NCBI GenBank assembly: GCA_041659045.1
Contig: JBAZZB010000001.1
Coordinates: 454,111-518,110, forward strand
DNA length: 64,000 bases
Source of the DNA: Patescibacteria group bacterium
Lineage (GTDB): Bacteria; Patescibacteriota; Patescibacteriia; SG8-24; DYFX01
Direction of reading: 5' to 3'
Shown piece by piece: positions 4,220 to 47,561 of this stretch (position 1 is its first letter; every line of letters begins with the position of its first letter). Both the position numbers and the translations under genes were made by a program. The notes below the pieces were generated by a model, which did not search any database, had not been told where the DNA came from, and saw only the letters and a program-made list of their open reading frames with translations.

Positions 4220-4220
4220 A

Positions 4221-4949: not shown

Positions 4950-6079
4950 ACTTCAGGCATATCCGTAATCAGCCGCATAATTTCCTCGACGGAAATACCG
5001 ATCGAGGGGCGGTGGTATTCGATCATCGGAGCGTCGGTTACGCCGTAGAGCTGCTCTTTGACGAGACGCGAAAGTTGGGCAATTGCCGACTCTGGCACGA
5101 TGATGCGCTTAGCGCCTTTCGCGGCCGCACGCATCGCTTTCGTTGGGAAGGGCCGGAGGGTAATGGGTCGGAACAGGCGCGCCTTGCCTCCCGTCTGATC
5201 GATCGCCTGTTTGGCCGCCGAACCGACGATACCGAAAGCAACGATCAAAATTTCAGCATTCGGATCGCCATACGTTTCATGCTCTTCAATTTCCGGAGCG
5301 ACCTTGTCCCACGCCGCCTTGATTTCAAGATTGACTTGCAGTGTTTCCTCTTCAAGGTTCAAACAGTTTCGGTAACAGGAATATTCAACTCCGTCCTGAT
5401 TGCGAATATGTACTTCTGGCGTCGGCACGACCTCGTTGATTGGCCGGTCGCGTTTTTCTTCAAGCAGATATCTTTCCGTCGGCGTCATTTCAACACCTCT
5501 GCTCGCCGGCTCGTAGATTTCAACTTCTCCCATCATCTTGGCTTGATAGCCATCAGCCAACAAAAAAGTCGGGAAGCGATATTTCCACGCCGTGTTGAAC
5601 GCTTTGATGCCGTAGTCGTACAGCTCTTGAAGATTTCCCGGCGCGTAGACGATGCGGTAGCCGTTACCGTTGCCGCCGAACGCCGTCAGGTTCACTTCGG
5701 ACTGCGAATAGATAACCGTCGACGTCGATGGTCCACCGCGTTGGTTGATATAGGCGACGACCGGCAAACGCATGGCTTCACACATCGAGAAGGCGTCTTG
5801 CATGAGCACGTTGCCAGGACCAGCAGTGGCGGTGAAGGCTTTTTGCCCGGAGAGTACGGCGCCGAGCAACATGAACGACGCGCCGATTTCGTCTTCCGCC
5901 TGCACGAACACCATGCCGTCCTTCTTCCCCTTCTCGCTTCCAGCTTCCTTGGCCCACCACAACAAAATTTCCGATCCCGGTGTGATCGGATAGCCGTACA
6001 TCCCCGTTGCTCCCGCAGCACGAGCCGCAAGCGCCAGGATCTCATTGCCCATCAGGAAGCGTTTTTCTGGCATGTACAA
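4946..6079 (-). CDS. porA: 2-oxoacid:ferredoxin oxidoreductase alpha subunit
   Basis: 377 aa. MPEKRFLMGNEILALAARAAGATGMYGYPITPGSEI is a canonical POR/KOR alpha N-terminus. Confidence 0.8.
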   Translation of the reverse strand: MYMPEKRFLMGNEILALAARAAGATGMYGYPITPGSEILLWWAKEAGSEKGKKDGMVFVQAEDEIGASFMLLGAVLSGQKAFTATAGPGNVLMQDAFSMCEAMRLPVVAYINQRGGPSTSTVIYSQSEVNLTAFGGNGNGYRIVYAPGNLQELYDYGIKAFNTAWKYRFPTFLLADGYQAKMMGEVEIYEPASRGVEMTPTERYLLEEKRDRPINEVVPTPEVHIRNQDGVEYSCYRNCLNLEEETLQVNLEIKAAWDKVAPEIEEHETYGDPNAEILIVAFGIVGSAAKQAIDQTGGKARLFRPITLRPFPTKAMRAAAKGAKRIIVPESAIAQLSRLVKEQLYGVTDAPMIEYHRPSIGISVEEIMRLITDMPEV

Positions 6080-8121: not shown

Positions 8122-9977
8122 AGAGATGATTTGAGCGTAAACATTCCAGACTCAACGGACGCTTTCACGTCGTCGGAGACGTTAGAATCCTGTCCGAGCG
8201 TTCGTAGCAGCATACGGCGTTTTTCATACGACATCAAGCGTGGTTGACCATTGCGGATATCGAACGGCATGAGGTGAAAGACCGTTTCTTTACCATCATC
8301 GGCGATACCTACGGCCAAGCCTTCGCTCGTCGCCGCGCTAAAAGACTGATCGAAGATGAAATTTCCGAGCGAATAGAAGATTGCCTTCCCATTATACACC
8401 TCAATCGTTTGAAGGACGTGCGGGTGCGCGCCGATGATGACATCCGCTCCCGCGTCGATGAAGCGATGCGCGAGTTCTGTCTGCGTTCGAGTGGGTCGGC
8501 GTTCATATTCAACGCCCCAATGCGGGTACACAACAACAAAGGCTCCGCCTTTTTTTGCCGTACCAATCGCTTTCACAACATCATCCGCACCTTGCCCGGC
8601 GAACTGATGGAAGCCGATCTGTGCAACGCGACGTCCGCGCACAGAAGTAACGTTCATGATCTCGCTTTGGTTGGAGGGGTCGCCAAAGGTGTTCATTCCA
8701 GCAGCCTGAATCAAGCCTCGAGCCGCGACCAGGGCTTCTCTACCGAAATTATTGGAATGATTATTCGCGAGGCCGAGATGTGTGAATCCTGTGCGCGCGA
8801 GCGTCGCGAGCCACGCCGGTTCAAACGGAAACCGCAGATCATCCGGCTCGACCGGTTTTTGCGCTTCAGAAACATCGCTAAAGACGCCCTCGGCATTGGT
8901 CGTCACAAGATCGCTCCCTTTATAGAGACGGCGCATGCCGTCGAACAAGAACGCCACGCCGTTGCGCTGAATCGTCGCCTCCACACCGCGCGCGAGCATC
9001 ATGTCGCCGAACGCGAGAAGCGTGACGGTAGGATCCACGTCTTTTTTTCCCTTCGCGAAGGAACCGACGATATAGCTTGTAACGCCGGGCTGCGACGGCT
9101 GCTTCGTCAGCTCTGCCGAGTTCGAGTGCGCGAAGAGCGTAAAACGCCGCGCCTTGAGACCCTCGAGATGCCGCATCACCAGACGCAAACCCTGCATCGA
9201 GTCGATGTCGAGCGAACGCGCGCCTTCGTCATCCAGCGAACGAATCACCGTCATGCTTTTACGATCATGGAAGCGCGCCGCGGTGTCGGTCAACTCGTGC
9301 GTGAAATCGAAGGAGCCGACGACCAAAACGCGCGAACCAAAAATATCGCGAATCCCCTCTACCGCTTTTTCGATTTCTTCATCAGTCGCCGTCTCTTTGA
9401 TCATGAGCGGCACAACACGCGCGTTCGGTAACGATTTTTTGATGAACGGCACGATGCCGGAAATACCGTGTTCGCGTGCGAACGGTTCCTCTTCAATCGT
9501 AACCGCTCCCTTCTGAGCCAAGCGTTCGACCGCGTCGCAATCACTCTCAAGTTGGCCGTACGGCGTGCGCCAAGCGGATGGTGTCGCAATGATCGAACCA
9601 CGACCGCTCATAAAATGATTCGGGCTCACAAGCACGACGGTCACTCTTTTCTCGGTCGCTACCGCGCCAAACGCTTCAGCAATATAGGGGGCCGCCAACA
9701 AATGATGAGGCACGATGAGTCCTTTGATGCTGGGGTCCGTCTTACGCGCCGCGGCATTCCGATAGGCTTCATCAAAGATCTCCGGGGTGCTGAAATACGA
9801 ATACTGGATCGTCTCCGGACAGATCAACGCAAGTCGACGTTCTTCGATCAGCTCCGTCCAAATGAAAAAAGCGCCAAGAAGCGCGGCAACAAAAATCGTT
9901 CCGATCAGGGCGTTACGAGCGATCCTTCGCGCGAGCGTTTTTGGCATAACCGAAGGTATACGCAAAACGATCGTCAC
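8118..9977 (-). CDS. Fusion protein: MEMO1-like (AmmeMemoRadiSam system protein B) N-terminal domain plus CapA/PgsA metallophosphatase-like C-terminal domain
   Basis: N-terminal TM. LIVPHH...EHGISGIVPF resembles the MEMO1 family. C-terminal LLAFGDMMLARG...ANNHSNNFG...HWGVEY...GAHPHVLQ resembles the CapA poly-gamma-glutamate/capsule synthesis family. Confidence 0.65.
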   Translation of the reverse strand: MTIVLRIPSVMPKTLARRIARNALIGTIFVAALLGAFFIWTELIEERRLALICPETIQYSYFSTPEIFDEAYRNAAARKTDPSIKGLIVPHHLLAAPYIAEAFGAVATEKRVTVVLVSPNHFMSGRGSIIATPSAWRTPYGQLESDCDAVERLAQKGAVTIEEEPFAREHGISGIVPFIKKSLPNARVVPLMIKETATDEEIEKAVEGIRDIFGSRVLVVGSFDFTHELTDTAARFHDRKSMTVIRSLDDEGARSLDIDSMQGLRLVMRHLEGLKARRFTLFAHSNSAELTKQPSQPGVTSYIVGSFAKGKKDVDPTVTLLAFGDMMLARGVEATIQRNGVAFLFDGMRRLYKGSDLVTTNAEGVFSDVSEAQKPVEPDDLRFPFEPAWLATLARTGFTHLGLANNHSNNFGREALVAARGLIQAAGMNTFGDPSNQSEIMNVTSVRGRRVAQIGFHQFAGQGADDVVKAIGTAKKGGAFVVVYPHWGVEYERRPTRTQTELAHRFIDAGADVIIGAHPHVLQTIEVYNGKAIFYSLGNFIFDQSFSAATSEGLAVGIADDGKETVFHLMPFDIRNGQPRLMSYEKRRMLLRTLGQDSNVSDDVKASVESGMFTLKSSL

Positions 9978-19163: not shown

Positions 19164-19217
19164 GCTCGGAGTGTAGCACACCGCCCAAAAAGGAAAACCC
19201 GCCGTTACGGCAGGTAC

Positions 19218-20669
19218 CTATTCGACACGTCGCGAGATGTCGTCGATGGCTTTGAGTACGCGCTTCTCGGTTTCACGCACCGAGGCACCACTCTGCAAAT
19301 CATGGAAGGCATCACTCACGTTCCGTCGGCTGGAACGAATGGCCTTTTGCACTTTCAAGCGAAGTCTTCTGACAGAACCGAGGAGATAGAGGATAACCAG
19401 AGACAGTACGGTCGTAGCGACACCGGCGGCAAACGGCACCCAGAAGCCTTGGGGCGCGGTTCGCTCCGTACGCTGCTCGACAACCTTCGGTGCTTCCATC
19501 ACGACCATTGGCGTAACTTTCGGCATCGCAGGCGCCTCAGTCACCGTAAACGGAACCATCGCCTCGCGAGAATGGCCAGCCCGATCAAAAGCTCTGACGG
19601 ACAGCGTGTGCGTGCCTGCCGAAAGTTGCGACACCTCATAGGTTGACGTCGCGGTGCCAAACCATTCAACGGACTGCCCTCCGTCAATGCGCACCTCGTA
19701 TCGGGCAATACCAGAGCCACGATCCGTCGCATCAAACAGGAAACGCGCGGCGTCCGACGGTTGAGCTCTCTGAATTTCGTGAATTTCGAAATGTTCCGGA
19801 TCTTCCGTATCGATCTGAACGCGATAATGCGTTGTCGCACCCCACTCCCCACCTTTTCTAAATTGCGCGTGGAAATACCACACACCGTCCTCCAAATCCT
19901 TCACCGTTCTTGAAGCAATGGCTGGCGTGTAACTTACTGTCGGTGAGGCATTTGGAATAACCCCGACGAGCAAACGCACAGCATCAACGCCGGTCGGCAC
20001 CGACCAGGCAAAAGCCGCATCTCGTGACGCATACCACGCATCAGAATCAGGATGCGTACTGGAAACAATTCTTGGCGCCGGCACACTGTTACCCGTCGGC
20101 ACTTCTGGCGCAGTTGTGCCCACGAGCGTAAAACTCGCGCCGAGGAGTCCGGAGGCAACTTCCGTTCCTTGGCCGTCATTGGCCAATACGGACCCTGTCG
20201 AGAAAGACGCTTTCGCCGTACCTTCAGACTTCACGCGAAAGGAAACGGATAAAAGTTTCCCGCTGGACCCTTGAAAGCCAGGATTCAACACAATACCCTC
20301 GAAACCAATCGTTCCGGCCGTGTTTGAAAAGCTTGGATCTTGAATCCAAAGCCCAAAAACAGAACCACTTTTTGAAAGCGATACGACTTCAAGTTTGTCC
20401 GGTGGAAAGATGATACCTCCTGATGCGGCGTTGACCGCGCGATCCGTGCTCGAGACGTAGACGTTTACTGTAAAGGCGCTGCCGACAGCGTGAGAGCCAG
20501 ACGACGGCGAAAGGTACAGAGACGCCGCCTCGGCAGAGGCTGGCACCGCAACAAAAAACAAAATCGCCACCGCGATAGCTCGCGTTTTTTGAAAAAATGA
20601 GCGATACGTTTTGCCGTGGTTTACGACAAACGTATCAAAAAAACGTCGTCTCAAGTTCATTGCGTTCAA
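19218..20669 (-). CDS. Cohesin-like domain cell-surface protein with C-terminal TM anchor
   Basis: Signal peptide, cohesin-like beta-sandwich segment (LYLSPSSGSHAVGSAFTVNVYVSS...GIIFPPDKLEVVSL), Ig-like middle and a C-terminal hydrophobic helix plus basic tail. Paralog of the next gene. Confidence 0.55.
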   Translation of the reverse strand: MNAMNLRRRFFDTFVVNHGKTYRSFFQKTRAIAVAILFFVAVPASAEAASLYLSPSSGSHAVGSAFTVNVYVSSTDRAVNAASGGIIFPPDKLEVVSLSKSGSVFGLWIQDPSFSNTAGTIGFEGIVLNPGFQGSSGKLLSVSFRVKSEGTAKASFSTGSVLANDGQGTEVASGLLGASFTLVGTTAPEVPTGNSVPAPRIVSSTHPDSDAWYASRDAAFAWSVPTGVDAVRLLVGVIPNASPTVSYTPAIASRTVKDLEDGVWYFHAQFRKGGEWGATTHYRVQIDTEDPEHFEIHEIQRAQPSDAARFLFDATDRGSGIARYEVRIDGGQSVEWFGTATSTYEVSQLSAGTHTLSVRAFDRAGHSREAMVPFTVTEAPAMPKVTPMVVMEAPKVVEQRTERTAPQGFWVPFAAGVATTVLSLVILYLLGSVRRLRLKVQKAIRSSRRNVSDAFHDLQSGASVRETEKRVLKAIDDISRRVE

Positions 20670-20676
20670 CAGGTTC

Positions 20677-21558
20677 TTACGAACCTTGTTTCCTCCGGGA
20701 AAGCACGCGAGAGAGAGTTCGACCGAGCAAGAACCCTATCAACACCATCATAGCAAGCGTCGCGTATTTTTGGTATGACGACTGCTTCTTTGCCGCGAAC
20801 ACCGTTGCAACGCGCGCATGCCCTTTCTTATCGACGGCCTTAACAGAAATATCCTCGTTCACGTTTTGGTTTTGCAAAAGATACGGACTTTCGGCTGTCA
20901 CGTACGCTCCTCCACCTTCGCGCACTTCATAATGATCAATTCCGGAGGCCTTGTCTTGCGTCGCGAAAACTAGGAAGTACTTGCCCTCAAACATGTTCGG
21001 ATCGCGAGACACGACCGGAACAAACGTTTCAGGCGCGTCAAGATCGGCTTTCTCGTACGTGACATCGCCTTCACCCACAACCTGCTCCGCGACCTCAAGA
21101 ATCAGCGGCCGCGCGTTCGCGCTTGCCTGCGTTCCTTTTCCGTCGTGAAGCAAGATTTGCTCTTCTTGCACCTGGAAAAACGCCACACCAGCACGTAGAG
21201 GACGCACGACAACGGAAAAAAGAAAACTTTTTTCCCCAACGTGACCTCCAGGAATAATGCCGGAGAATGCAATTTTTCCGGTACCAGCCTGAGGTCGTTG
21301 TATCCAAAATGTTACTGTTGAATTGCCGTCTCGTATAGCCTCAACATCAAAAGACTCCGCTGGAAAAACAAGCGTTCCCTCAACAGCGTTCACGTCTTCG
21401 TTTTCCGTATCAAGAAACACGTCAACGACATACGAACTTCCGACATGAAATGGCGCGGTTTCAGTTTCTGCAAAAATACTCGCCGCAGAAACCGCGCCCG
21501 CGCGCATAAGGAACATCGTCGCAAGCAATGTCAGTGAAATTTTTTTGAAAAGCTGCAT
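20677..21558 (-). CDS. Cohesin-like domain cell-surface protein with C-terminal TM anchor (paralog)
   Basis: Signal peptide, then the same cohesin-like pattern (HVGSSYVVDVFLDTENEDVNAVEGTLVFPAESFDVEAI) and a C-terminal TM plus basic tail. Confidence 0.55.
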   Translation of the reverse strand: MQLFKKISLTLLATMFLMRAGAVSAASIFAETETAPFHVGSSYVVDVFLDTENEDVNAVEGTLVFPAESFDVEAIRDGNSTVTFWIQRPQAGTGKIAFSGIIPGGHVGEKSFLFSVVVRPLRAGVAFFQVQEEQILLHDGKGTQASANARPLILEVAEQVVGEGDVTYEKADLDAPETFVPVVSRDPNMFEGKYFLVFATQDKASGIDHYEVREGGGAYVTAESPYLLQNQNVNEDISVKAVDKKGHARVATVFAAKKQSSYQKYATLAMMVLIGFLLGRTLSRVLSRRKQGS

Positions 21559-21566
21559 ACGACAGA

Positions 21567-22619
21567 TTAGCCAGACCAGTGATACGCCATAATACTAAAG
21601 TCGACAAGGTTCACTTTCCCGTCGCCATTCAATTGTTCTTTCTCAACCACTCGGAATTCAGCAGAAAGCTCGCGCTGATACCAATACGCAACGATCGAGA
21701 AGTCGACAAGGTTCACCTTCCCATCGCCGTTTACGTCGCCCTTCACACCAACAACATCAGGCAGCGCCGTCACGTTCTTCGTTCCAACGACGAATCCTAC
21801 AGTTTTTCCGAACGGGCTCGCCTCCTCCTCCAACGCCGACTTTGCTTGCGTACTATGTGATCCGGCTTCAAGCACGGCCGTATTGAGCGTGTACAAATAC
21901 GCGCCCGTGGCATCGGCATTCACGCTGTAAAAAAGTTCGTTCTCGGAATTCACCGCAAGTGTCACTTCACTATTCGGCGCAGTCCGCCCAAAAATAGCAA
22001 TGTTGTCTCCGCGTTTTACCTCGCTTTTATCTGCAGAGATCGTCGGTGCGATAAAAATTCCACTTACTCTCGTTGTGGCGCCATTCGTAATGTAAACCGG
22101 GAAACTAAACAATGCAGAATGCAGGCCGGTCGCATCTTCACCATAAATACCGAAGGCATAATTCCCCGTCGCCAAACCCGTCAGGCTCACCTCAAAACGG
22201 GCGTCTGGACCAGCAATGGTTGAAACGGCAACCTGACCATCCTTTAAGACAACAACCTTGCTCAACGGATATGCCCTGCCTGAAAAGGTTACCTGCGTAA
22301 CGACGGGAACCGTCGTAGCTCCTCCCCCACCCCCACCTGTTGCACCACCGCCCACGCTCCCGCTTGATGTCGTGCAAAGCGATGTATCAAACGAACAAGA
22401 GGGATCGCATGATAGCGTACCTCCGCCGAATCCCTGCGACTGGCACGATTGTCCGTTGAGATCAGTGACGTCGCACTCTTCATCCCACTCGGTAATCGTA
22501 TTCCCGCAGACGGAAATACGGATTCTCGCTGAGATGGTCGAGGCAGAGGTAACTACCGGAAAAACCACCAGCCACACAGCAAAAATAAGCGCGGAAAATC
22601 TCGCCAAGACACGGCTCAT
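21567..22619 (-). CDS. Dockerin-containing secreted protein
   Basis: C-terminal duplicated type-I dockerin calcium-binding segments GDVNGDGKVNLVDFSIVAYWYQ and LNGDGKVNLVDFSIMAYHW. The N-terminal region has a signal peptide, a Cys-rich segment, a poly-Gly linker and Ig-like beta domains. Confidence 0.7.
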   Translation of the reverse strand: MSRVLARFSALIFAVWLVVFPVVTSASTISARIRISVCGNTITEWDEECDVTDLNGQSCQSQGFGGGTLSCDPSCSFDTSLCTTSSGSVGGGATGGGGGGATTVPVVTQVTFSGRAYPLSKVVVLKDGQVAVSTIAGPDARFEVSLTGLATGNYAFGIYGEDATGLHSALFSFPVYITNGATTRVSGIFIAPTISADKSEVKRGDNIAIFGRTAPNSEVTLAVNSENELFYSVNADATGAYLYTLNTAVLEAGSHSTQAKSALEEEASPFGKTVGFVVGTKNVTALPDVVGVKGDVNGDGKVNLVDFSIVAYWYQRELSAEFRVVEKEQLNGDGKVNLVDFSIMAYHWSG

Positions 22620-23239
22620 GATTTCCTCGAAATTGCGAATTCCAATTTGAAGAATTTCTTAAACGCCGCCGCGAGGAGCACGAACCCAATGAATCCGAAT
22701 ACGATGTACGTCCAAGGCCTATAGCGCGCGATCAAGCTTGTGATGCGATAAAATACCGCCTGAAAGATATTTGAGGGCGCAACCGTGAAGTAGAATTTCG
22801 AAGCAGCAGCAACACCGATACTGGCACCGCCCGTCGTGCGAGCTTTCCTCAAAGGGCGCGCTTCAAGAAACGCATAATACTCGCCCGGTTTGGCGTTCAA
22901 AGGCACGCGGAGCGTCATGGTGACCGGCTGAACCTTTCCAGGCTCAAGACTGAACGTCCGCGGCGTAAACGTCACCCAATCGCGACCCGGACGAAGCTGA
23001 GGAACGTTTTCCTGATACTCGATAAAAGCTTCGTACTCCGTAAGTTCATCACCCGTGTTGATTACGGGCAGAGTCGGAAGATCGTAAATCGTTCCAGGCT
23101 TGAGGGGTTCTTCTAGGATGACTTTTCCGAGCCCCACGCCGACTCCAACATTCGCAAAAACAGCGAGTGGGAACGCGAGCGCGGCTACGACCGCCAAGGC
23201 AGCTTTTCGGACAAAAATTTTCCGCATACCAACCTTCAC
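22616..23239 (-). CDS. Hypothetical surface protein with signal peptide and C-terminal TM anchor
   Basis: Signal peptide AALAVVAALAFPLAVFA, a beta-rich middle and a C-terminal helix FGFIGFVLLAAAF plus KKFFK tail. 4-nt overlap with the dockerin gene. Confidence 0.5.
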   Translation of the reverse strand: MKVGMRKIFVRKAALAVVAALAFPLAVFANVGVGVGLGKVILEEPLKPGTIYDLPTLPVINTGDELTEYEAFIEYQENVPQLRPGRDWVTFTPRTFSLEPGKVQPVTMTLRVPLNAKPGEYYAFLEARPLRKARTTGGASIGVAAASKFYFTVAPSNIFQAVFYRITSLIARYRPWTYIVFGFIGFVLLAAAFKKFFKLEFAISRKS

Positions 23240-23254
23240 GGTGAAGTACTCGAA

Positions 23255-23773
23255 TCAGGATGCTGTCGCGGTAACAACAACGTCGACACTTTGCTGTGTG
23301 TAATCTGCAGTTGCCGTTGGAGTCGTAAGAGTCAGGTCGAAACGTGTCGCCGCACCTACGGCCACGTCCGCAACCAAAGCGGTATTCCCCGTGGTCAAAG
23401 CCGTGTAGTTTGTCGGGTTGGATTCACAGGCCGTGAGGCAGAAGGAATGCCTGTACGTTTCTGAACTCGAAGTCGCCCCCAGCGTCCAGCTAGCGGAATC
23501 CGTGCCGGAAATGAAAAAATCTTCGACAACGTTGCCGGTGTTCGTCGCGCTTTGCGTGTCCCACATACCCACTGAAGTCGAGCGTGCAGTGCTCAGACTC
23601 AACGATCCATAGGCAATGCTAGCGTCAGCAGCTGTCAGCGCCACGTTCGTAACCGTGACAGTCGCTGCTACTGTTGCCGCCTGAACCGTCATCGTTGAAA
23701 ACGCCATCAACGAGGAGAACAAAAAGACCGCTGCCATCCAACTCCATCCCACTCTTGTTAGAGTCAAACGCAT
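23255..23773 (-). CDS. Small secreted protein, paralog of the C-terminal module of the giant glycine-rich protein (WxL-like)
   Basis: Start set at MRLTLTRVGWSWMAAVFLFSSLMAFS (signal peptide). The rest aligns nearly residue-for-residue with the last roughly 170 aa of the 1425-aa protein (GMWDTQSATNTGNV..DF.I.GT..A.WTLGAT). The similarity is also visible at nucleotide level. Confidence 0.6.
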   Translation of the reverse strand: MRLTLTRVGWSWMAAVFLFSSLMAFSTMTVQAATVAATVTVTNVALTAADASIAYGSLSLSTARSTSVGMWDTQSATNTGNVVEDFFISGTDSASWTLGATSSSETYRHSFCLTACESNPTNYTALTTGNTALVADVAVGAATRFDLTLTTPTATADYTQQSVDVVVTATAS

Positions 23774-23867
23774 ACGTCTAAGAAAAACATTCGGCCATTT
23801 ATAACTTGCCTCTATGATACCACGATCTTCAAGCGACCGATTGCGAAGATATCCCCAGTTTTCAGCC

Positions 23868-26800
23868 CTAATGCTGTGTCGCAGTGATGACGACGTCGAC
23901 GCTTTGTTGCGTATTGTATGAGGTCGATGTCGGCGTCGAAATATTGAGATCAAAGAGCTGCGCGGCGTCTACGGCGACGTTCGTTACCATCGACGTCTCC
24001 CCCGTCGTCAACGCCGTATAGTTGGTCGGTGCGGTCGTACAGCTCGCCGTGCAGAACGCATGCGCATACTGCTCGCTGCTTGGTGTCGCGCCGAGCGTCC
24101 AGTTAGCCGTGTTCGTTCCGCGAATGGTGAAATCCTCAGCAACGTTTCCGGTATTTGTCGCGCTTTGCGTGTCCCACATACCCGTTGATGTCGAGCGTGT
24201 CTCGCTGGTACCCATGATTCCATAAGCGACCGTGCCATCTCCAACAGTCACCGCGACAATCGTCGCCGGATTGATGGTGATCTGTCCTGATGAGTAGGCG
24301 CTTACGGGAGAGTTTTCACCATCATCGACGACACCGTACACGTAATAGCTTCCTGTCGTGACCCCTGTCGTGTCCCAAGCGCACGTCACACCTGTTCCTT
24401 CAGCGGCGGTGGCACACGGGCCGCTGATCACCGTACCGTCGAGACCGGAGTTATTGGTATCGTAATAGAAAGCCGCCGTCACAACATCATCGGAGTCAGC
24501 CAGGGTATACGTCACGTTGTAGGAATCTCCGACGGTAACGGTGTCGCTTGTGCCATCCGGTTGTGAAACCGAAATCGTTGGCGCAGCGTTGCCTGAAGCG
24601 ACATACGAAAGTTTCACTTTTCCATCAGCGCCGGCACCACCGATCGTACATGTCGATGTCGATGCGGATTCTCCGCCTCCACCTCCACCTCCACCGCTTC
24701 CGCTCGCTGGTGCGTTTCCGTTCGTGGCAATAGCGGACGCGCCATCTCCGCCAATACCTCCGCCCGAGGGGGCCGCCGCTGCCGTTGCTGTCGTCCAGGT
24801 CGTCGCGCCACTCGTACCATTCGCCGCAATGCCGGCGCTTGAACCGCCAGGTCCGCCGTAACCATTCGTGTTGTTGTAACCAACCCCTCCGTCACCGCCG
24901 GATGCGATGTAACTTGGCTCACTCACGCCTCCACTCGACGCACCGCCGCTTCCACCGGCCGGCGGCGTACCCGTTGAGTTTGCGCCGCCCGCGCCGCCTT
25001 TTGCCATCACGGTTGAGGCATCGACAAAATAGCTGTCCTCCCCAGATAATCCAGAAAGACAGGTGCCGCCGAGCCCGCCTCCTCCCGCCACGACGGTGTA
25101 GGTATTTCCAGCAGTGACTGCAACGGTGTTTTTGGAATATCCGCCGCCACCTCCACCACCACCTCCGTCGGAAATAATGCGCTGCTGTCCGCCACCACCA
25201 CCACCGCCGCCCCACACTTCAACATCAACAGACGTCACACCTGTGGGCGCCGTCCATGTGTAGACATAGGTGATTCGTACACGACCAACATAACCGTCTC
25301 CGCCTTTAACAGTGGCGCCTTCGGCCGCGCCGCCGCCGCCGCCGCCAGGACCAATATCCGGAGCCAAACCGTCCGTCGTTCCTGACGTAGCTGTGCCATA
25401 CCCTCCAGGACCACCACCAACGACAGCTACCGCACCAGTCGGTGCCGTGCTCGCATTCGTACCGGCACTCCCCGTACCTGCCGCACTGCCTCCACCTCCA
25501 CCAGCACCCGTCGCGCTGTTCGTACCAGCTCTACCGTTGCCGCCAGTGTAGGTCGTGTCGCCAACACTGGAACCGCCGGCGCCACCTGCGCCACCTGATC
25601 CTCCAGTGCCAGAGCCTCCGCTTCCCACATTTGGATTGCCGCCACTTCCGCCTTTTGCCATTACTGTCGAGGCGTCAATAAAATAGCTGTCTCCGCCAGC
25701 ATTACCGGCGCTTGAGGCGACGCCTGTTCCACCAGCACCAACAACAACGGTGTAGTCATTTCCAGGTGTGACGGAAATATTGGATTTCTTTGCGTAAGCA
25801 CCGCCTCCGCCGCCTCCGCCGCCATCATTCGCGGAGTCATTGTTACCGCCGCCGGCTCCGCCACCACCCCACGCCTCGACGTTCACGGCCGTGACGCCTG
25901 CAGGAGCCGTCCATGTTGCGGAACTCGTATAAACAACCGAACCCGTCGCATACGTATCAACCGTATCCGAAGAATCCGCAATATATGTGATAGCGACTTT
26001 TCCATCAGCGCCTTGACCTCCAATCGAACACGTTGTTGTTGAAAGCGCATCGGCTGCGCCGCCACCGCCGCCGCCAGAACCAAAATTACTCAAAGGCGGA
26101 TCCCCCGGCACACCGTCTGCGTCGCCGCCGTCACCGCCAATACCGCCCCCGTGCGGCGGTTTTGAAGCGTCGTCAATTGCCCATGTTGTGGGTCCATTCG
26201 TACCGTTTGCTGCCACGCCCGCGCTTGAGCCGCCAGGGCCGCCTCTGCCATCAGTAGCATTACTGCCCTTACCTCCGTTACCGCCGGAAAATTTTGTATC
26301 ACCAACGCCGGAAGCTGCCGCGCCACCAGCACCACCAGAACCTGGTGTGCCCGTAGAGTTCGGGCCGCCACTACCACCCTTCGCCATCACGGTCGATGTA
26401 TCGATAAAATAACTGTCGTCTCCAGCTACGCCAGTGATACATGTGCCTCCAAGACCACCAGCACCAACACCGACCGCATACGTGTTACCTGGAGTGACTG
26501 AAATGCTAGTTTTTTTGGAATATCCTCCGCCGCCGCCTCCACCTCCGCCGTCGGAAACAATGCGCTGTTGTCCACCGCCACCTCCGCCTCCGCCCCACAC
26601 TTCAACATCAACAGACGTCACGCCCGTCGGTGCCGTCCAGGTATAGATATAGGTAATGCGTACGCGACCAGGCGCACCGTCGCCACCTTGAGCAGTTGCT
26701 CCTTCGCCACTACCTCCGCCTCCGCCGCCAGGACCAATGTCAGGGGCAAGGCCGTTTCCGGCAACCGTAAATCCGTAGCCACCAGGACCACCACCAACCA

Positions 26801-28145
26801 CCGCAGTCGCGCCGGTCACTGTCGCAGCCGTGCCGTTGTTGCCGGCACTTGTCGTTCCCGCACCGCCACCACCTCCTCCTCCAATACCTGTCGTACTGTT
26901 TCTTCCCGCGCCACCAGTACCGCCCGAATACGTAACATCACCAACACTCGAACCACTGGCTCCTCCTGTTCCAGCAGTGCCGGCATCTCCAGTAGACGCT
27001 CCGCCCCCACCGCCACCCTTCGCCATGACCGTCGAAGAATCGATAAAATAGCTGTCGCCACCGGCGTTCCCGGCGCTTGAAGCCACGCCCGTACCTCCCG
27101 CGCCAACGACAACGGTATAGCCGTTTCCCGGTGTAACGGAGATATTCGATTTCTTCGCATACGCACCACCGCCGCCGCCACCACCACTGTCCGCGGAGGC
27201 TTGTGTGTTACCGCCACCTGCGCCACCAGCGCCCCACGCCTCGACGTTCACGGCCGTAACGCCGGTCGGAGCCGTCCATGTCGTCGAACTCGTATAGACA
27301 ACGGAGCCCGTCGTATATCTTTCTTCATAACCGCCCGTAGGTCGAAAACGAACCGCTCCAAGATCTACAGCGAAATCATCTGTTCCGTTTTTTGTTGCCG
27401 TACCGGCCGTGCCATCAGCATTCTCGACACCTTGCGTGTAATAGCTTCCCGGCGAGTTCAGCACGACGACCTCCGAATGTACTTCGATAATACTTGTTGC
27501 TTCGTACATCTGCACCTGCGTCGTCACGCGCGGAATACCTTCCTCGCAGCACTGTGCGAGATCCAAAAAATCCACGACAAAGACGCGATTTGGCGTTGAG
27601 CCAAACGTCTGATACCGAATCTGCGAACCGTTTGAGGAACTCGCGTACAAGTCGGCCCACACGGCGGCGATCAGCGCATTTGGCGTGGCTGCGTCTGGAA
27701 TCACTTGCGTGTTCGTGGAGCTGCCAGGGGTGTCGCCCGTAAAACTGACAAAGCCGTTGGAACTGATCCAGACCGAATCGTAATCGGTACCGTAAAAGGT
27801 AAATGTGAACGGCAGCGTAATCTCGCTGGAAAATTCGTTATCAAATGTTCCAGACGTATCAAACGCCGCAGTCGCTCCCCCATCAAGCGTGTAGGGATCG
27901 TAGGCGATGGTTGATGATTGATAGAAAATCTCAGCCGAGGCTTTCGCTTCGCGTACGTTTGGAAAAAACGGATTGTGACCGAGCCGCGGCCAATCAGAAA
28001 AAATCCAGCTGGTCATGATTGTCAAAACCAGCAGGAAGCGTGACACCTTGGCGGCCTTCTTACATCCAGACCAAAAAACACGCCTACACCAAGCAGCGCG
28101 GCGCGCGACAGAATCCATGTCGATGCGGATGGTCAACGTGCGCAT
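23868..28145 (-). CDS. Giant (1425 aa) glycine-rich repeat cell-surface protein
   Basis: N-terminal TM/signal and a beta domain with PFTFTFYGTDYDSVWISSNGFVSF. Then four repeats of TWTAPxGVTxVxVExWG(G)n...VTPGNxYxVxVGAGG...SYFIDxSTVMAKGG(G)n, organised as two near-identical roughly 467-aa super-repeats. Then an Ig-like domain and a C-terminal module with an NWTL motif. The exact start is uncertain. Confidence 0.75.
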   Translation of the reverse strand: MRTLTIRIDMDSVARRAAWCRRVFWSGCKKAAKVSRFLLVLTIMTSWIFSDWPRLGHNPFFPNVREAKASAEIFYQSSTIAYDPYTLDGGATAAFDTSGTFDNEFSSEITLPFTFTFYGTDYDSVWISSNGFVSFTGDTPGSSTNTQVIPDAATPNALIAAVWADLYASSSNGSQIRYQTFGSTPNRVFVVDFLDLAQCCEEGIPRVTTQVQMYEATSIIEVHSEVVVLNSPGSYYTQGVENADGTAGTATKNGTDDFAVDLGAVRFRPTGGYEERYTTGSVVYTSSTTWTAPTGVTAVNVEAWGAGGAGGGNTQASADSGGGGGGGAYAKKSNISVTPGNGYTVVVGAGGTGVASSAGNAGGDSYFIDSSTVMAKGGGGGGASTGDAGTAGTGGASGSSVGDVTYSGGTGGAGRNSTTGIGGGGGGGAGTTSAGNNGTAATVTGATAVVGGGPGGYGFTVAGNGLAPDIGPGGGGGGSGEGATAQGGDGAPGRVRITYIYTWTAPTGVTSVDVEVWGGGGGGGGQQRIVSDGGGGGGGGGYSKKTSISVTPGNTYAVGVGAGGLGGTCITGVAGDDSYFIDTSTVMAKGGSGGPNSTGTPGSGGAGGAAASGVGDTKFSGGNGGKGSNATDGRGGPGGSSAGVAANGTNGPTTWAIDDASKPPHGGGIGGDGGDADGVPGDPPLSNFGSGGGGGGAADALSTTTCSIGGQGADGKVAITYIADSSDTVDTYATGSVVYTSSATWTAPAGVTAVNVEAWGGGGAGGGNNDSANDGGGGGGGGAYAKKSNISVTPGNDYTVVVGAGGTGVASSAGNAGGDSYFIDASTVMAKGGSGGNPNVGSGGSGTGGSGGAGGAGGSSVGDTTYTGGNGRAGTNSATGAGGGGGSAAGTGSAGTNASTAPTGAVAVVGGGPGGYGTATSGTTDGLAPDIGPGGGGGGAAEGATVKGGDGYVGRVRITYVYTWTAPTGVTSVDVEVWGGGGGGGGQQRIISDGGGGGGGGGYSKNTVAVTAGNTYTVVAGGGGLGGTCLSGLSGEDSYFVDASTVMAKGGAGGANSTGTPPAGGSGGASSGGVSEPSYIASGGDGGVGYNNTNGYGGPGGSSAGIAANGTSGATTWTTATAAAAPSGGGIGGDGASAIATNGNAPASGSGGGGGGGGESASTSTCTIGGAGADGKVKLSYVASGNAAPTISVSQPDGTSDTVTVGDSYNVTYTLADSDDVVTAAFYYDTNNSGLDGTVISGPCATAAEGTGVTCAWDTTGVTTGSYYVYGVVDDGENSPVSAYSSGQITINPATIVAVTVGDGTVAYGIMGTSETRSTSTGMWDTQSATNTGNVAEDFTIRGTNTANWTLGATPSSEQYAHAFCTASCTTAPTNYTALTTGETSMVTNVAVDAAQLFDLNISTPTSTSYNTQQSVDVVITATQH

Positions 28146-28217: not shown

Positions 28218-28817
28218 TTACTGACGAACGTAAGGTGCCAGCTCAGCCGTCACGATAAAACGCTTAAAGGCCGTACCGAGCGGATAGGAAGTTTGCAGCG
28301 TCAAAGTTTTCTTCACGCCATCGCCTTGGGACAACACGCTGAGGTCCTTCGGGGAAACAACTTTCGTGCCCGTTACGACGTACAAAAACGGCGTACCGGA
28401 AGCATTCGTCACCTCGATTTCTTCACCAACGCGAATCGACATGAGCTTCGCGAACACATCTTTGTATGAACCCGGACTCCACACGTAATCGCTGGAGTGA
28501 CCAAAAAAGTAGGCGTTGCCAACTTGTCCCGGCATCGCCGTTCCCGGAAAATGCACGACACCTTTTTCGAGCGCTTGCTGAAAAGATTTCTCGTTACGCG
28601 CCGCTGGCTCGATGACAGGCGCATCGATTCCGAGTCCAGGGATCGCCAAACGCACCGCCAACGTTGAAGAAGACGAGGCGGCAACCGTTTCAATCATAAG
28701 CGTGGCGGAGTCGGGACGATCTCCGTCAACGCGTGCGCGAATCGATGGCCAAGCCATGATAAACACGGACGCGACAAGCGCGATGAAAGGCAGAAGTATA
28801 TGGGCGTGGCGGCGCAT
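28218..28817 (-). CDS. Sortase-fold protein with Ser in place of the catalytic Cys
   Basis: N-terminal TM. LAIPGLGIDAPVIE, HFPGTAMPGQVGNAYFFGHSS (the His motif) and KRFIVTAEL (Arg motif) align with SrtA. The TLxTC motif reads LTLQTSYP, with codon TCC at 28287-28289. The protein contains no Cys at all. Confidence 0.65.
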   Translation of the reverse strand: MRRHAHILLPFIALVASVFIMAWPSIRARVDGDRPDSATLMIETVAASSSSTLAVRLAIPGLGIDAPVIEPAARNEKSFQQALEKGVVHFPGTAMPGQVGNAYFFGHSSDYVWSPGSYKDVFAKLMSIRVGEEIEVTNASGTPFLYVVTGTKVVSPKDLSVLSQGDGVKKTLTLQTSYPLGTAFKRFIVTAELAPYVRQ

Positions 28818-28858
28818 AAGACGTAAACACGCCGGCAGGTGCCGGCGTGCCTATGATA

Positions 28859-29581
28859 TCAAGAACGTTTACGGAGCGACAGGACGACACCGAACGTCAT
28901 CACGACAAGTGCCATCGGAAGCGAAGCGCCTCCGGTGCGCGGAAGCTCGTCAACCGTGTTCGTGTCTCCACCAGGAGGCGTGGTACCGCCGTCCGGAGGC
29001 GTGAGCGGATTGCAGCCGGGGCTAAGCGGATCGCACGTCGCGACATCAGGAGGCGTGATCGGAGCACAATCGGGGCTTCCAACCGGGCAGCTCGGCGGCG
29101 CCGGAGGTTCACAGCTCGTCATGTTGCAGCCACCAGGCGGCGGGGTCGTCGGACCGTCGCAGCCCTGCGAGCATTCCGGAGTTGCAATCGCAACGTCGTC
29201 ATACGTAACAACGCAGGTTGCGGAACCGTTTTCAGCCAAGGTGCCGGAGCAGCCCGGACCGTAAAAACGAGCGTAGTACGGCTGGTGCGATCCCTGAACA
29301 GCGTAGTTGCCCGGGGATACGGCCATCGTGATACCCGGTGCGCCAAAACCAGCCCACGTCGAGAGGGTGGTCATGCCGTCGCCGTAGGTCATAAGAAAGT
29401 TTGCCGGCAAGGCAATACCTCCGTCATCATTGATGACGTTCGTCACAACGTTGATCGTGGCTTGGCTGTTGCCGCCACCGCCCGGACCGGGGCCGGTCGG
29501 GTTATACGAGGCCGCCTGAACGCGGGCAGCGCTCGTAAGAAGCGCCGTCGCAAAGACAAGCGCGAGAAGTGTTTTTCGCAT
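28859..29581 (-). CDS. Secreted Pro/Gly/Cys-rich protein with C-terminal LPRTG sorting signal
   Basis: Signal peptide MRKTLLALVFATALLTSAARVQA. C-terminus ELPRTGGASLPMALVVMTFGVVLSLRKRS, which is LPXTG plus a hydrophobic stretch plus a basic tail. Confidence 0.65.
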   Translation of the reverse strand: MRKTLLALVFATALLTSAARVQAASYNPTGPGPGGGGNSQATINVVTNVINDDGGIALPANFLMTYGDGMTTLSTWAGFGAPGITMAVSPGNYAVQGSHQPYYARFYGPGCSGTLAENGSATCVVTYDDVAIATPECSQGCDGPTTPPPGGCNMTSCEPPAPPSCPVGSPDCAPITPPDVATCDPLSPGCNPLTPPDGGTTPPGGDTNTVDELPRTGGASLPMALVVMTFGVVLSLRKRS

Positions 29582-47500: not shown

Positions 47501-47561
47501 AAGGCGTAATGGTTGATGAGACCAGTATACCTTTTCCGCTTGCATTCCCCATTGGGGATAA

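Follow-up and report, generated by a model that had tools for sequence, protein, structure and literature searches.

The window, by which we mean the whole 64-kb stretch of DNA that was analysed, is part of a 646-kb contig of a Patescibacteria MAG, from an ultra-small bacterium of the candidate phyla radiation (CPR). It carries three abutting open reading frames on the minus strand, which we call Doc, CohB and CohA in the order of transcription (Table 1). Doc is a dockerin protein and the other two are cohesin-fold paralogs; in the direction of transcription both cohesin genes lie downstream of the dockerin gene, not upstream as a sequence-only reading of the same DNA had placed them. The junctions p207/Doc, Doc/CohB and CohB/CohA measure -4, 8 and 7 nt, and the stop codon of p207 overlaps the start codon of Doc as ATGA. 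The operon probably ends at the hairpin that follows CohA, which is notable by its position only: the total number of terminator-like sites across the region is not above that in shuffled sequences. We found no paper that describes the Doc-CohB-CohA operon.

Table 1. Features of the gene run, with positions in the 64-kb window
Feature	Position	Strand	Description
Terminator-like hairpin	19197..19215	-	8-bp stem, 6 G-C pairs, T-rich tail; directly 3' of CohA stop codon
CohA	19218..20669	-	483 aa, type I membrane protein: signal peptide, cohesin, FN3-like, Ig-like, linker, TM, tail
CohB	20677..21558	-	293 aa, type I membrane protein: signal peptide, cohesin, disordered linker, Ig-like, TM, tail
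Doc	21567..22619	-	350 aa, secreted: signal peptide, Cys-rich module, Gly-rich linker, two Ig-like domains, C-terminal dockerin
Dockerin module of Doc	21570..21743	-	residues 293-350, two EF-hand-like loops, at protein end
p207	22616..23239	-	signal peptide, one beta-sandwich domain, C-terminal TM helix
p232	23255..23953	-	small secreted protein, about one beta-rich domain of ~150 aa
1425-aa protein	23868..28145	-	four Gly_rich_2 repeats (PF21722, E 8e-56), C-terminal p232-type domain
Sortase	28218..28817	-	Pfam Sortase, 1.7e-24
240-aa protein	28859..29581	-	signal peptide, Pro/Cys-rich stalk, LPRTG + hydrophobic helix + RKRS

In Doc, a signal peptide (residues 1-27, with the hydrophobic segment at 4-22) precedes the Cys-rich module (37-82) and an Ig-like region of two domains (about 105-282) that matches Big_6 (27.4 bits) and Big_7 of Pfam. 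The protein has no C-terminal TM helix, and such a helix occurs in 1 of its 76 relatives. Residues 293-344 match Pfam Dockerin_1 (PF00404) with 29.1 bits against a gathering cutoff of 22.9, and all 18 phmmer matches of Doc in the PDB are dockerins (best 2y3n_B, 1.2e-5). NCBI labels the protein identical to Doc (P0391) 'dockerin type I repeat-containing protein [Patescibacteria group bacterium]'. The two dockerin repeats, DVNGDGKVNLVDFSIVAYWY and QLNGDGKVNLVDFSIMAYHW, have 12 consecutive residues in common. A DFSI.AY.W helix comes after each of their loops, DVNGDGKVNLVD and QLNGDGKVNLVD. In this, Doc follows the type I plan of cellulosomal dockerins: a segment of about 22 residues is duplicated in tandem, and each copy has a 12-residue Ca2+ loop (pattern used: D-x-N/D-x-D-x-x-x-N/D-x-x-D) ahead of a helix. 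The bit score and the two loop-helix segments bear out the duplicated repeats that the sequence-only reading had seen at the end of this protein.

The loop-helix pattern is kept in 76 orthologs. When their C-termini are aligned the consensus is DLNxDGRVNLVDFSIAAYWYKR...DLNGDGKVDLVDFSIMAYYWTG, always at the extreme C-terminus, and both helices are near-invariant. Position 1 of loop 2 is Gln rather than Asp in the Doc of the window, and it is also non-Asp in the half of the orthologs that have a long linker. Judging from this residue, the second Ca2+ site of the dockerin may be weakened.

CohB and CohA are paralogs by BLASTP (E 5e-16) and by hhalign (probability 99.95%, E 1.5e-38). In CohB, the cohesin domain (residues 25-160; 21079-21486) is joined by a short disordered linker to an Ig-like domain (172-255), which is followed by a predicted TM helix at about 261-286 (hydrophobic 268-286) and a basic tail of 7 residues. 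In CohA, the cohesin domain (residues 48-185; 20115-20528) is followed by an FN3-like domain (about 195-290), an Ig-like domain (291-378) and a disordered linker, and the predicted TM helix at about 410-432 (hydrophobic 413-431) leads into a predicted helical cytoplasmic tail of about 50 residues (433-483). The start codon of CohA is uncertain: it could be TTG 20669, ATG 20660, or that of the 450-aa version in a public assembly (P0121). A C-terminal TM helix is present in all 83 relatives of CohB and in 88 of 99 relatives of CohA, for which the median tail length is 79 aa. One Ig-like domain and a C-terminal TM helix with a basic tail had been described for each of the two proteins. This describes CohB well, but CohA has two Ig/FN3-like domains and its tail is helical and much longer.

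The profile evidence for cohesins is thin in the window and better in the families. CohA matches Pfam Cohesin (PF00963) with E 2e-4 and 22.0 bits, under the gathering cutoff of 24.1, and CohB has no Pfam match at E<=1, Cohesin included. Among the relatives, PF00963 is found at E<=0.01 in 24 of 47 CohA and 6 of 44 CohB proteins (best 1e-7). Other profile matches of CohA are to Big_7 in Pfam and to an OmpL47-type barrel in NCBIfam (1.6e-7). The AlphaFold (AF2) models have a pLDDT of 86.3 for CohB and 83.9 for CohA, and of more than 90 across the cohesin domain, which forms a complete nine-strand beta-sandwich (jelly-roll) in both. Foldseek searches of the PDB with these models return nearly only cohesins as top matches (E 1e-11 to 1e-6), which superpose with a target-normalised TM of 0.66-0.80 and an rmsd of 2.4-3.7 Å. 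For CohB, nearly all of the best 40 matches are cohesins, and 2vo8 reaches a target-normalised TM of 0.80; CohA matches 2w1n at 1.3e-11 and cohesins at a target-normalised TM of 0.69-0.78. Hence, the models confirm the cohesin identity of both paralogs at the level of the fold, while at the profile level it fails or nearly fails. The sequence-only reading would have given up the cohesin assignment if neither paralog had a significant profile match. Such a match is indeed missing for CohB and borderline for CohA, but the fold- and family-level evidence overrules this. Its main observation, a dockerin next to two cohesin-fold paralogs with C-terminal TM anchors, therefore stands on the Pfam dockerin, the fold matches and the TM helices.

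Conservation within the cohesins is unevenly distributed. In CohB, 16 positions that are at least 90% identical lie on strands 3, 5, 6 and 8 versus 2 on strands 1, 2, 4, 7 and 9, where the 8-3-6-5 sheet is assigned by strand order in the DSSP string and not by 3D superposition. Across the CohA and CohB families, 23 columns have the same residue. Among them are the motifs NAxxG (strand 3), FxGI (strand 6) and LxNDGxGT (end of strand 8) and a W on strand 5.

Hundreds of related genomes also have the trio in this order; we compared the window with 83 loci from different species, within a wider set of at least 313 species genomes. Doc, CohB and CohA follow each other on a single strand in 75 of the 83 loci, and the remaining 8 end at a contig edge just before CohB; the order is intact in all 75 loci that are testable. 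CohA is present in one to four copies per locus. The median identity among relatives is 56% for the Ig region of Doc, 60% for the dockerin and 39-60% for the trio proteins overall, and the variable parts are the N-terminus of Doc and the large upstream proteins. An HMM built for the Doc dockerin and run over the window and the 83 loci matches nothing but Doc orthologs, one per locus. In a search of 1.84 billion representative proteins, every match of at least 50% identity among the 150 listed carries one dockerin only, placed at the C-terminus or a few residues before it. These proteins look like orthologs of Doc, and the full-length ones are 260-680 aa long. The sequence-only reading had proposed adhesion, or host or episymbiont attachment, as the more likely function. 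The strong conservation of the trio across Parcubacteria suggests a core component of the envelope rather than a fast-evolving, host-specific adhesin.

Genes for WxLIP-like, membrane-anchored proteins and for large, variable surface proteins often accompany the trio. In a family of 23 members to which p207 belongs, 5 match Pfam WxLIP_PGBD (PF06030; best 1.8e-6) and 1 matches PapD_N, and the family profile matches EfmWxLIP1 in the PDB (9i25, 9i1y) along some 220 residues (E 4e-4). At the sequence level the family is similar to WxLIP, the WxL-interacting protein of Firmicutes (DUF916/DUF3324), although p207 of the window is itself short and has no PF06030 match. Family members are encoded upstream of Doc, in the same orientation, in 34 of 54 testable loci (~60%). 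The domain of p232 carries one conserved W-T-L motif and belongs to no known family, with no Pfam WxL and no PDB match; the C-terminal domain of the 1425-aa protein is 55-57% identical to it. Further upstream, the 240-aa LPRTG protein is, judging by its motif, the probable substrate of the adjoining sortase. The surroundings of the trio in the other 83 loci yielded no sortase.

The best structural matches of CohA and CohB are the cohesin-FN3 modules of Clostridium perfringens (2w1n, 2vo8, 2jh2) and the cohesin of Archaeoglobus fulgidus (2xdh). As in the non-cellulosomal modules of C. perfringens, the cohesin is followed by an FN3- or Ig-like module, and as in other non-cellulosomal pairs the use of cohesin and dockerin would lie outside cellulose degradation. 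The C. perfringens modules belong to glycoside hydrolases and toxins that are large and secreted, and to our knowledge many non-cellulosomal cohesin and dockerin modules have no demonstrated partner. The trio is unlike those of C. perfringens and A. fulgidus in that its cohesins are carried by two small membrane proteins, paralogs that each have a C-terminal TM anchor, its sole dockerin partner is an enzyme-free Ig-domain protein from the same operon, and it is conserved over a whole CPR lineage. The trio also shares its polarity with anchoring scaffoldins (OlpA, OlpC and SdbA of C. thermocellum; ScaE of R. flavefaciens), where the cohesin is bound to the cell and the dockerin protein is secreted, and the cohesins of OlpA and OlpC (3ul4, 4dh2) are among its structural matches. 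The arrangement is therefore not the 'inverse' of a cellulosome, as had been proposed. What differs is the anchor alone: the anchoring scaffoldins of cellulosomes are attached via SLH modules or a sortase signal, and the trio via a TM helix. In contrast to cellulosomes as a whole, the trio has no enzymes, no carbohydrate-binding domain and no multi-cohesin scaffoldin, and it has one dockerin for two or more cohesin genes.

We know of no WxL cluster that contains a cohesin or a dockerin. The WxL clusters of Firmicutes combine a small WxL protein, a large WxL protein, a WxLIP and an LPxTG protein, and two papers that describe them mention neither cohesins nor dockerins (PMC10599100, PMC9772566). 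The likeness is limited to the upstream genes: Pfam and the PDB both give WxLIP matches for the p207 family, which also has the same C-terminal TM anchor, p232 is a lone domain that also ends a large protein, and an LPXTG protein is nearby. A WxLIP consists of DUF916 (PGBD), DUF3324 (HBD) and a C-terminal TM helix, whereas p207 of the window has one Ig-like domain, not two. Unlike the WxL domain with its dual Trp-x-Leu motif, the p232 domain has a single W-x-L. Pam pili are a CPR-specific surface system with Ig-fold helpers that carry C-terminal TM helices, and their pilins are reported chiefly from Saccharimonadia and Microgenomatia (Troman et al. 2026, bioRxiv 10.64898/2026.03.03.709456). 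One locus (L076) links them to the trio: the C-terminal end of a 976-aa protein upstream of it matches NCBIfam CPR_Pam_pilin_C (156 bits, cutoff 55). The trio cohesins are complete nine-strand sandwiches, unlike the truncated, donor-strand-accepting Ig domains of Pam.

One could argue that a larger filament or adhesin, encoded just upstream and working by strand complementation as in WxL clusters or Pam pili, has the trio as its base or anchor in the membrane; we regard this as possible but somewhat unlikely. CohA and CohB might then act like the membrane-anchored terminator PamR, with Doc linking the filament or giant adhesin to them, a suggestion we hold just as tentatively. The overlap of p207 with Doc, the frequency of the p207 family upstream of Doc, and its likeness to WxLIP and to two-Ig proteins of the PapD type that have a TM helix at the C-terminus all favour such a base. 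So do the WxL-cluster pattern of the upstream genes, the Pam_pilin_C protein of L076 and the helper design of the Pam pilus, whose chaperones are PapD-like and carry a TM helix at the C-terminus, and whose anchor is an FnIII protein that is itself TM-anchored (bioRxiv 10.64898/2026.03.03.709456). Against it, no p207 relative is detectable in 20 of 54 loci and no p232-type domain in 22 of 39, so that the link is either frequent without being obligatory, or the relatives are too divergent for detection. Moreover, no window protein matches the Pam models of NCBIfam (NF058579/NF058581) at E<=1, hhalign finds no similarity between the profiles of the window-type p232 domain and the Pam_pilin_C group (probability 0.3%), the p232 domain has no match to Pfam WxL, and the Pam paper names no cohesin, dockerin or Paceibacteria (bioRxiv 10.64898/2026.03.03.709456).

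It is quite improbable that there is no binding between the cohesin-like and the dockerin-like modules and that the three genes are neighbours only as envelope genes. There is similarly little chance that the dockerin is a module for binding Ca2+, glycan or peptidoglycan and that the cohesin folds are structural or have another ligand. The weak cohesin profile matches would fit these ideas, as would the essential dockerin-domain envelope protein of the saccharibacterium Southlakia, which has no adjoining cohesin gene (PMC10633639). However, order and adjacency are invariant in all testable loci of deeply diverged lineages in which the proteins have such low median identities. The dockerin subtype is confined to the Doc ortholog group (in the window, the 83 loci and the matches of at least 50% identity among the 150 listed), and conservation is centred on the canonical cohesin binding sheet in a form common to both paralogs. 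That the trio is a minimal cellulosome or another carbohydrate-degrading assembly is scarcely credible. It is suggested by the pairing of cohesin and dockerin as such and by a precedent from Olkiluoto groundwater, where cohesin and dockerin proteins of Ca. Shapirobacterales, another CPR lineage, expressed in the metaproteome were interpreted as a cellulosome (bioRxiv 10.1101/2021.08.21.457207). But neither Pfam nor NCBIfam detects a glycoside hydrolase or carbohydrate-binding domain in the six proteins of the gene run, and the only dockerin of each locus sits on an Ig-domain protein. A cellulosome scaffoldin has several cohesins and a carbohydrate-binding module; CohA and CohB have one cohesin each and match no such module. 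Several dockerin-bearing glycoside hydrolases would also be expected, and the 64-kb window has one dockerin open reading frame. The view of the sequence-only reading that the system is not cellulolytic agrees with these results.

We favour, with moderate confidence, the reading that the trio forms a dedicated complex of the cell envelope, in which cohesin and dockerin pair outside any cellulosome and which is conserved in the Parcubacteria (Minisyncoccia/Paceibacteria and allied CPR lineages). One dockerin per locus and the absence of a glycoside hydrolase domain from the trio point to a dedicated complex and not to a scaffold for cargo. A membrane-proximal docking platform, as proposed before, is a reasonable description. 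The window and the 83 loci give no support to a platform for many dockerin cargoes, since each operon has one dockerin gene and the close relatives of this dockerin (at least 50% identity) sit on Doc-like proteins.

In such a complex, all three proteins would be exported by Sec. CohB and CohA would be held in the cytoplasmic membrane by their C-terminal helix (N-out/C-in), each presenting one outward cohesin, CohB on a short stalk of one Ig-like domain and CohA on a longer one of the FN3-like domain, the Ig-like domain and the flexible linker. The helical tail of CohA would project into the cytoplasm. Cleavage of the signal peptide would free Doc from the membrane, and its dockerin, with Ca2+ in both EF-hand-like loops, would bind the strand 8-3-6-5 face of a cohesin. 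This would tether the Ig-like domains and the variable Cys-rich N-terminus of Doc non-covalently at the cell surface. The data show the domain identities, the predicted topology, the paralogy, the operon structure and the conservation, and we infer the physical interaction of Doc with the cohesins, its Ca2+ dependence, its stoichiometry and its biological role. Because the dockerin consists of two almost identical halves that are conserved to the same degree, Doc could have a dual binding mode, docking on either cohesin in both orientations, or it could connect CohA with CohB.

Most likely, we infer, the trio is a structural or anchoring part of a surface apparatus. A more far-reaching possibility, which we think unlikely, is that it forms the conserved membrane socket of a surface apparatus specific to Parcubacteria. 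A ternary clamp of CohA, Doc and CohB would then anchor variable giant proteins or Pam/WxL-like filaments, and the conserved cytoplasmic helix of CohA would couple it to the cell interior. The symmetric dockerin would in that case clamp two membrane cohesins set at different heights. If this were true, the trio would be the first cohesin-dockerin module to serve as a core anchor of an envelope or organelle across much of the candidate phyla radiation.

Our results show that the three genes of the trio form a tight operon. They encode Doc, a secreted dockerin protein, and CohB and CohA, two membrane-anchored paralogs with an N-terminal cohesin-like domain. The stop codon of p207, a WxLIP-like gene directly upstream, overlaps the start codon of Doc in an ATGA; 8 nt separate the Doc stop from the ATG of CohB, and 7 nt the CohB stop from the TTG of CohA. 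The CohA stop is followed by a hairpin (8-bp stem, T-rich tail), and the next gene downstream encodes an unrelated pseudouridine synthase. In our ORF reading the trio makes up the last three of eight minus-strand genes that run uninterrupted from 29581 to 19218 of the window. The five genes upstream of it on this strand encode, from first to last, an LPRTG protein, a sortase, a 1425-aa protein, a small secreted protein (p232) and p207. The sortase and the LPRTG protein stand at the head of this run of surface-protein genes (window 28218-29581, minus strand). The latter, encoded just before the sortase, has 240 aa, a Pro/Cys-rich stalk and a signal made of LPRTG, a TM segment and RKRS; it is unrelated to p232. 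A sortase near the trio is not conserved in other loci.

Position, strand and product length of the three genes of the trio (window coordinates)
Gene	Position	Strand	Product
Doc	22619..21567	-	350 aa
CohB	21558..20677	-	293 aa
CohA	20669..19218	-	483 aa

The sequence-only reading saw a duplicated dockerin at the C-terminus of Doc, and this is borne out by Pfam Dockerin_1 (29.1 bits against a cutoff of 22.9) and by a phmmer search of PDB sequences, in which all 18 matches are dockerins (best 2y3n_B, 1.2e-5). Both loop-helix repeats contain the same 12 consecutive residues (GDGKVNLVDFSI). The N-terminus of Doc carries a signal-like hydrophobic segment, with no further TM segment in the protein; behind it come a module with six cysteines, a linker rich in Gly and Ig-like domains (Pfam Big_6, 27.4 bits; Big_7). 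In 76 of 76 Doc orthologs the dockerin is the C-terminal end; the consensus reads DLNxDGRVNLVDFSIAAYWYKR, a linker and DLNGDGKVDLVDFSIMAYYWTG, and then the protein stops. There are two linker subtypes among the 76 (module at window 21570-21743, minus strand), a short one, 'SPPA', and a long one, 'LSAEFxxxE', to which the window protein belongs. In the long subtype the first position of loop 2 is taken by residues other than Asp (Q, K, E and H among them), hence the second site of these dockerins may bind Ca2+ differently.

CohA and CohB are paralogs (BLASTP E 5e-16; hhalign probability 99.95%, E 1.5e-38), and what sets CohA apart from CohB is in effect an FN3-like domain inserted into it and a long tail in the cytoplasm. 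The claim that both are cohesin-like is marginal when the window copies are compared with profiles, but holds at the level of fold and family. CohA matches Pfam Cohesin at E 2e-4 and 22.0 bits, below the cutoff of 24.1, CohB has no Pfam match, and phmmer of both against PDB sequences found no cohesin and nothing useful. Profile searches against the PDB were weak, leading from CohB to cohesins at E 0.05-0.26 and from CohA to a Bap Ig domain. We aligned 44 relatives of the CohB type and 47 of the CohA type and predicted structures for the two window proteins. In the CohB model (pLDDT 86.3) a leader helix precedes a nine-strand sandwich (residues 26-157), which some 10 disordered residues link to a small beta domain (182-253); a TM helix (261-292) follows. 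The CohA model (pLDDT 83.9) has its sandwich at 49-183, two more beta domains that extend to 376, disorder at 385-408 and then a single long helix of which the TM segment is a part. Cohesins dominate the Foldseek matches of both models in the PDB (target-normalised TM 0.66-0.80, rmsd 2.4-3.7 A). The best match of both is the cohesin-FN3 double module 2w1n of C. perfringens (1.2e-11 and 1.3e-11), followed by 2vo8, 2xdh, 1g1k, 3ul4, 4dh2, 6kg* entries, 5nrm and others. Among the relatives, Pfam Cohesin is matched at E<=0.01 by 24 of 47 of the CohA type and 6 of 44 of the CohB type, and some are already named 'cohesin domain-containing protein' at NCBI. On the strength of these structural matches, family matches and names we accept CohA and CohB as predicted cohesins by fold and homology, with the window copies missing the curated Pfam threshold.

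Both paralogs had also been read as carrying C-terminal membrane anchors, and their relatives agree. A C-terminal TM helix is predicted in 83 of 83 CohB relatives (median tail 7 aa) and in 88 of 99 CohA relatives (median tail 79 aa), and in 1 of 76 Doc relatives. The TM helix and basic tail of CohA, CohB and p207 cannot be taken for a sorting signal, since these proteins are without an LPXTG motif. Residues 433-483 of CohA (window 19221-19373, minus strand) form a conserved, highly charged, helical cytoplasmic tail of 51 aa. The consensus of CohA-type tails is rich in E/K heptad-like repeats and matches no known family, only, weakly, apolipoprotein-type amphipathic helices in PDB profile searches.

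How widespread is the trio? With one genome scanned per GTDB species, CohB relatives turned up at no fewer than 313 loci, a lower bound because the scan rests on two peptide patterns. Essentially all of 80 of these at least 313 loci come from Patescibacteria of the Parcubacteria/Minisyncoccia radiation (Falkow-, Nomura-, Wolfe-, Colwell-, Staskawicz-, Komeili-, Lipton-, Zambryski- and Doudnabacteria), including Ca. Microsyncoccus archaeolyticus PMX.50, a parasite of archaea that is in culture and has the trio (locus L048). A few of the 80 lie on contigs labelled Nitrospira, Gammaproteobacteria or Deferribacteres; all are short MAG contigs, and we consider the labels doubtful. When the window proteins were compared by phmmer with six-frame ORFs of 83 loci, Doc, CohB and one to four CohA-type copies, in this order, abutted or overlapped on one strand in 75. 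At the other eight CohB starts within 270 nt of a contig end, so that Doc cannot be assessed there. Two loci (L011, L070) have no CohA match despite room downstream of CohB. Three or four tandem CohA-type genes follow CohB, with a single Doc, in L002/L014 (10885-15616) and L019 (10687-14643); L002/L014 also have, between Doc and CohB, an inserted gene for a 1308-aa NosD/beta-helix protein that lacks a dockerin.

Compared with the window proteins, the orthologs have their highest median identity in the dockerin (60%), followed by the Ig region of Doc (56%), the CohA cohesin (55%), the membrane-proximal domain of CohB (54%) and the CohB cohesin (39%). The N-terminal 100 residues of Doc are alignable in only 31 of the 76 orthologs. 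In CohB 4, 2, 8 and 2 positions on strands 3, 5, 6 and 8 are at least 90% identical, against 2 altogether on strands 1, 2, 4, 7 and 9, the strands being numbered by their order in the DSSP string and not by superposition. In type I complexes the cohesin sheet 8-3-6-5 is the dockerin-binding face. With this numbering, conservation sits on the expected face.

A platform for many dockerin-bearing cargo proteins, as had been suggested, does not emerge from our searches. No further dockerin was found in any ORF of the window and the 83 loci, either with an HMM of the Doc dockerin, even at E<=10, or with a regex search, and cohesin HMMs matched nothing in the window apart from CohA and CohB. The 70-residue dockerin module gave 2526 phmmer matches at E<=1e-3 among 1.84 billion representative proteins. 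Within the 150 listed, those of at least 50% identity all have a single dockerin no more than a few residues from the C-terminus, and the full-length ones (260-680 aa) look like Doc orthologs; the others are multi-repeat proteins of about 30-40% identity. Hence, among the matches listed, we see no cargo family with a Doc-type dockerin. Doc, CohA and CohB look like a dedicated complex, and we think that they probably form a cognate, membrane-anchored cohesin-dockerin pair.

One could also argue that the trio is the anchor of a WxL/Pam-like system. WxL clusters combine two WxL proteins, one small and one large with the WxL domain at its C-terminus, a WxLIP with a TM helix and often an LPxTG protein (PMC10599100, PMC9772566). 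The region upstream of Doc (window 22616-28145, minus strand) parallels the Firmicute clusters in layout. The 1425-aa giant protein has four Gly_rich_2 repeats and ends in the same domain (55-57% identity) that, behind a signal peptide, makes up p232, about 150 aa with a conserved W-T-L motif. The p207 family has an Ig-fold and a C-terminal TM helix; 5 of its 23 members match Pfam WxLIP_PGBD (best 1.8e-6), one matches PapD_N, and its profile aligns with the E. faecium WxLIP1 structure over about 220 residues (E 4e-4). The resemblance of p207 to WxLIP thus appears at the family level only. But p232 differs from the Firmicute proteins: it has a single W-x-L motif and no match to a WxL profile, Pfam or the PDB. 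The p207 family is found upstream of Doc in 34 of 54 testable loci (adjacent in 23 of 54) and the p232-type domain in 17 of 39, hence the surrounding cluster is a frequent but not universally detectable neighbour, and the trio is the constant part. Pam pili, recently reported from Saccharimonadia and Microgenomatia, are donor-strand pili of CPR; their PapD-like chaperones and their FnIII anchor all have C-terminal TM helices (bioRxiv 10.64898/2026.03.03.709456). An NCBIfam scan of a mixed alignment of p232-type and L076-type proteins (L076 is a related locus with a large protein) matched 'CPR_Pam_pilin_C' and 'PamT'. These matches stem solely from the L076-type protein (156 bits), and no window protein matches a Pam model. 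We dropped the reading of p232 as a Pam pilin or PamT domain because hhalign gives the two groups a probability of 0.3%. Overall, we regard a WxL/Pam-like anchor as rather unlikely.

Another argument would be that the modules are cohesin-like and dockerin-like without binding each other, and CohB has indeed no match in Pfam. However, 23 columns have the same residue in both paralog families, among them N-A-x-x-G on strand 3, W on strand 5, F-x-G-I on strand 6 and L-x-N-D-G-x-G-T at the end of strand 8, a pattern that would fit two paralogs recognising the same ligand. We consider the absence of binding improbable. In a Microgenomates MAG, cohesin and dockerin proteins found to be expressed have been interpreted as a cellulosome (bioRxiv 10.1101/2021.08.21.457207). 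The trio, with its single enzyme-free partner, is not a cellulosome, and we give that interpretation hardly any credence here.

In the cognate complex that we favour, Doc would be secreted and then captured, its dockerin binding CohA, CohB or both in a Ca2+-dependent manner. The two paralogs would hold their cohesins at different distances from the membrane, and the symmetric, fully conserved dockerin could allow dual-mode binding or bridge both cohesins. The conserved amphipathic helix of CohA in the cytoplasm might serve oligomerisation or an intracellular contact. So understood, the trio would work like an anchoring scaffoldin-dockerin pair, or like the non-cellulosomal cohesin systems of C. 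perfringens and archaea. It differs from all of these in its TM anchor, its two single-cohesin paralogs, its single enzyme-free partner and its conservation across a CPR lineage. Because the whole Ig-dockerin body of Doc is conserved, the alignments argue for a core envelope or anchoring role rather than a host-specific adhesin. Host contact would more plausibly fall to the variable N-terminus of Doc and to the giant proteins encoded nearby.

Several observations concern the surroundings of the trio. The giant gene (window 24000-28000) has 60% GC and the strongest negative GC skew of the window (-0.18), and many spurious ORFs overlie its four long repeats in other frames. In L076 a protein ending in CPR_Pam_pilin_C (3057-5984, plus strand; 156 bits) lies just upstream of a WxLIP-like gene and the trio, and L047 has an 87%-identical relative (3051-5897; both about 950-980 aa). 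Hence, Pam-type pilin domains may also occur in Parcubacteria, adjoining the cohesin-dockerin trio. Elsewhere in the window are an 817-aa VirD4/TraG-like type IV secretion coupling protein (37782-40235, minus strand; Pfam TrwB_AAD_bind, TraG-D_C, T4SS-DNA_transf), a 619-aa fusion of a Memo-like domain with PGA_cap (8118-9977, minus strand; CapA-type poly-gamma-glutamate capsule synthesis) and a 1191-aa protein with a C-terminal Peptidase_S74 (44066-47641, minus strand; E 6e-13). Peptidase_S74 is an intramolecular chaperone of endosialidase and tail-fibre proteins. A 'tail fibre-like protein' is reported to be a conserved neighbour of pam operons (bioRxiv 10.64898/2026.03.03.709456).

Our literature search found no paper on cohesins or dockerins in Parcubacteria, Paceibacteria or Minisyncoccus, nor on the trio operon, and the Microsyncoccus and Minisyncoccus papers and supplements mention neither domain. 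The domains themselves already have names in databases. Two published statements come nearest: one is the cellulosome reading of the Microgenomates MAG, the other concerns SEML1_0315, an envelope protein with a dockerin domain that is essential in the Saccharibacterium Southlakia (PMC10633639); SEML1_0315 has 927 aa and no cohesin neighbour and is therefore not an ortholog of Doc in the trio operon. The trio cautions against taking cohesin and dockerin matches in CPR genomes as a sign of cellulose degradation, a reading that has been made (bioRxiv 10.1101/2021.08.21.457207). For cellulosome research, the trio would add to the known cohesin-dockerin pairs one that is minimal, has no enzymes and is anchored in the membrane.

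Few bacteria are as abundant, or as poorly understood, as Parcubacteria; the handful that have been cultured are parasites of methanogenic archaea. To our knowledge, very few envelope systems are conserved across them. The trio, in constant order in at least 75 species-level genomes, provides a specific predicted interaction between proteins for which small recombinant modules would suffice as a test. It offers a handle, through tagging, antibodies or landmarks for cryo-ET, on how Parcubacteria build their surface, and perhaps also on how they hold the large variable proteins that they use on their hosts.
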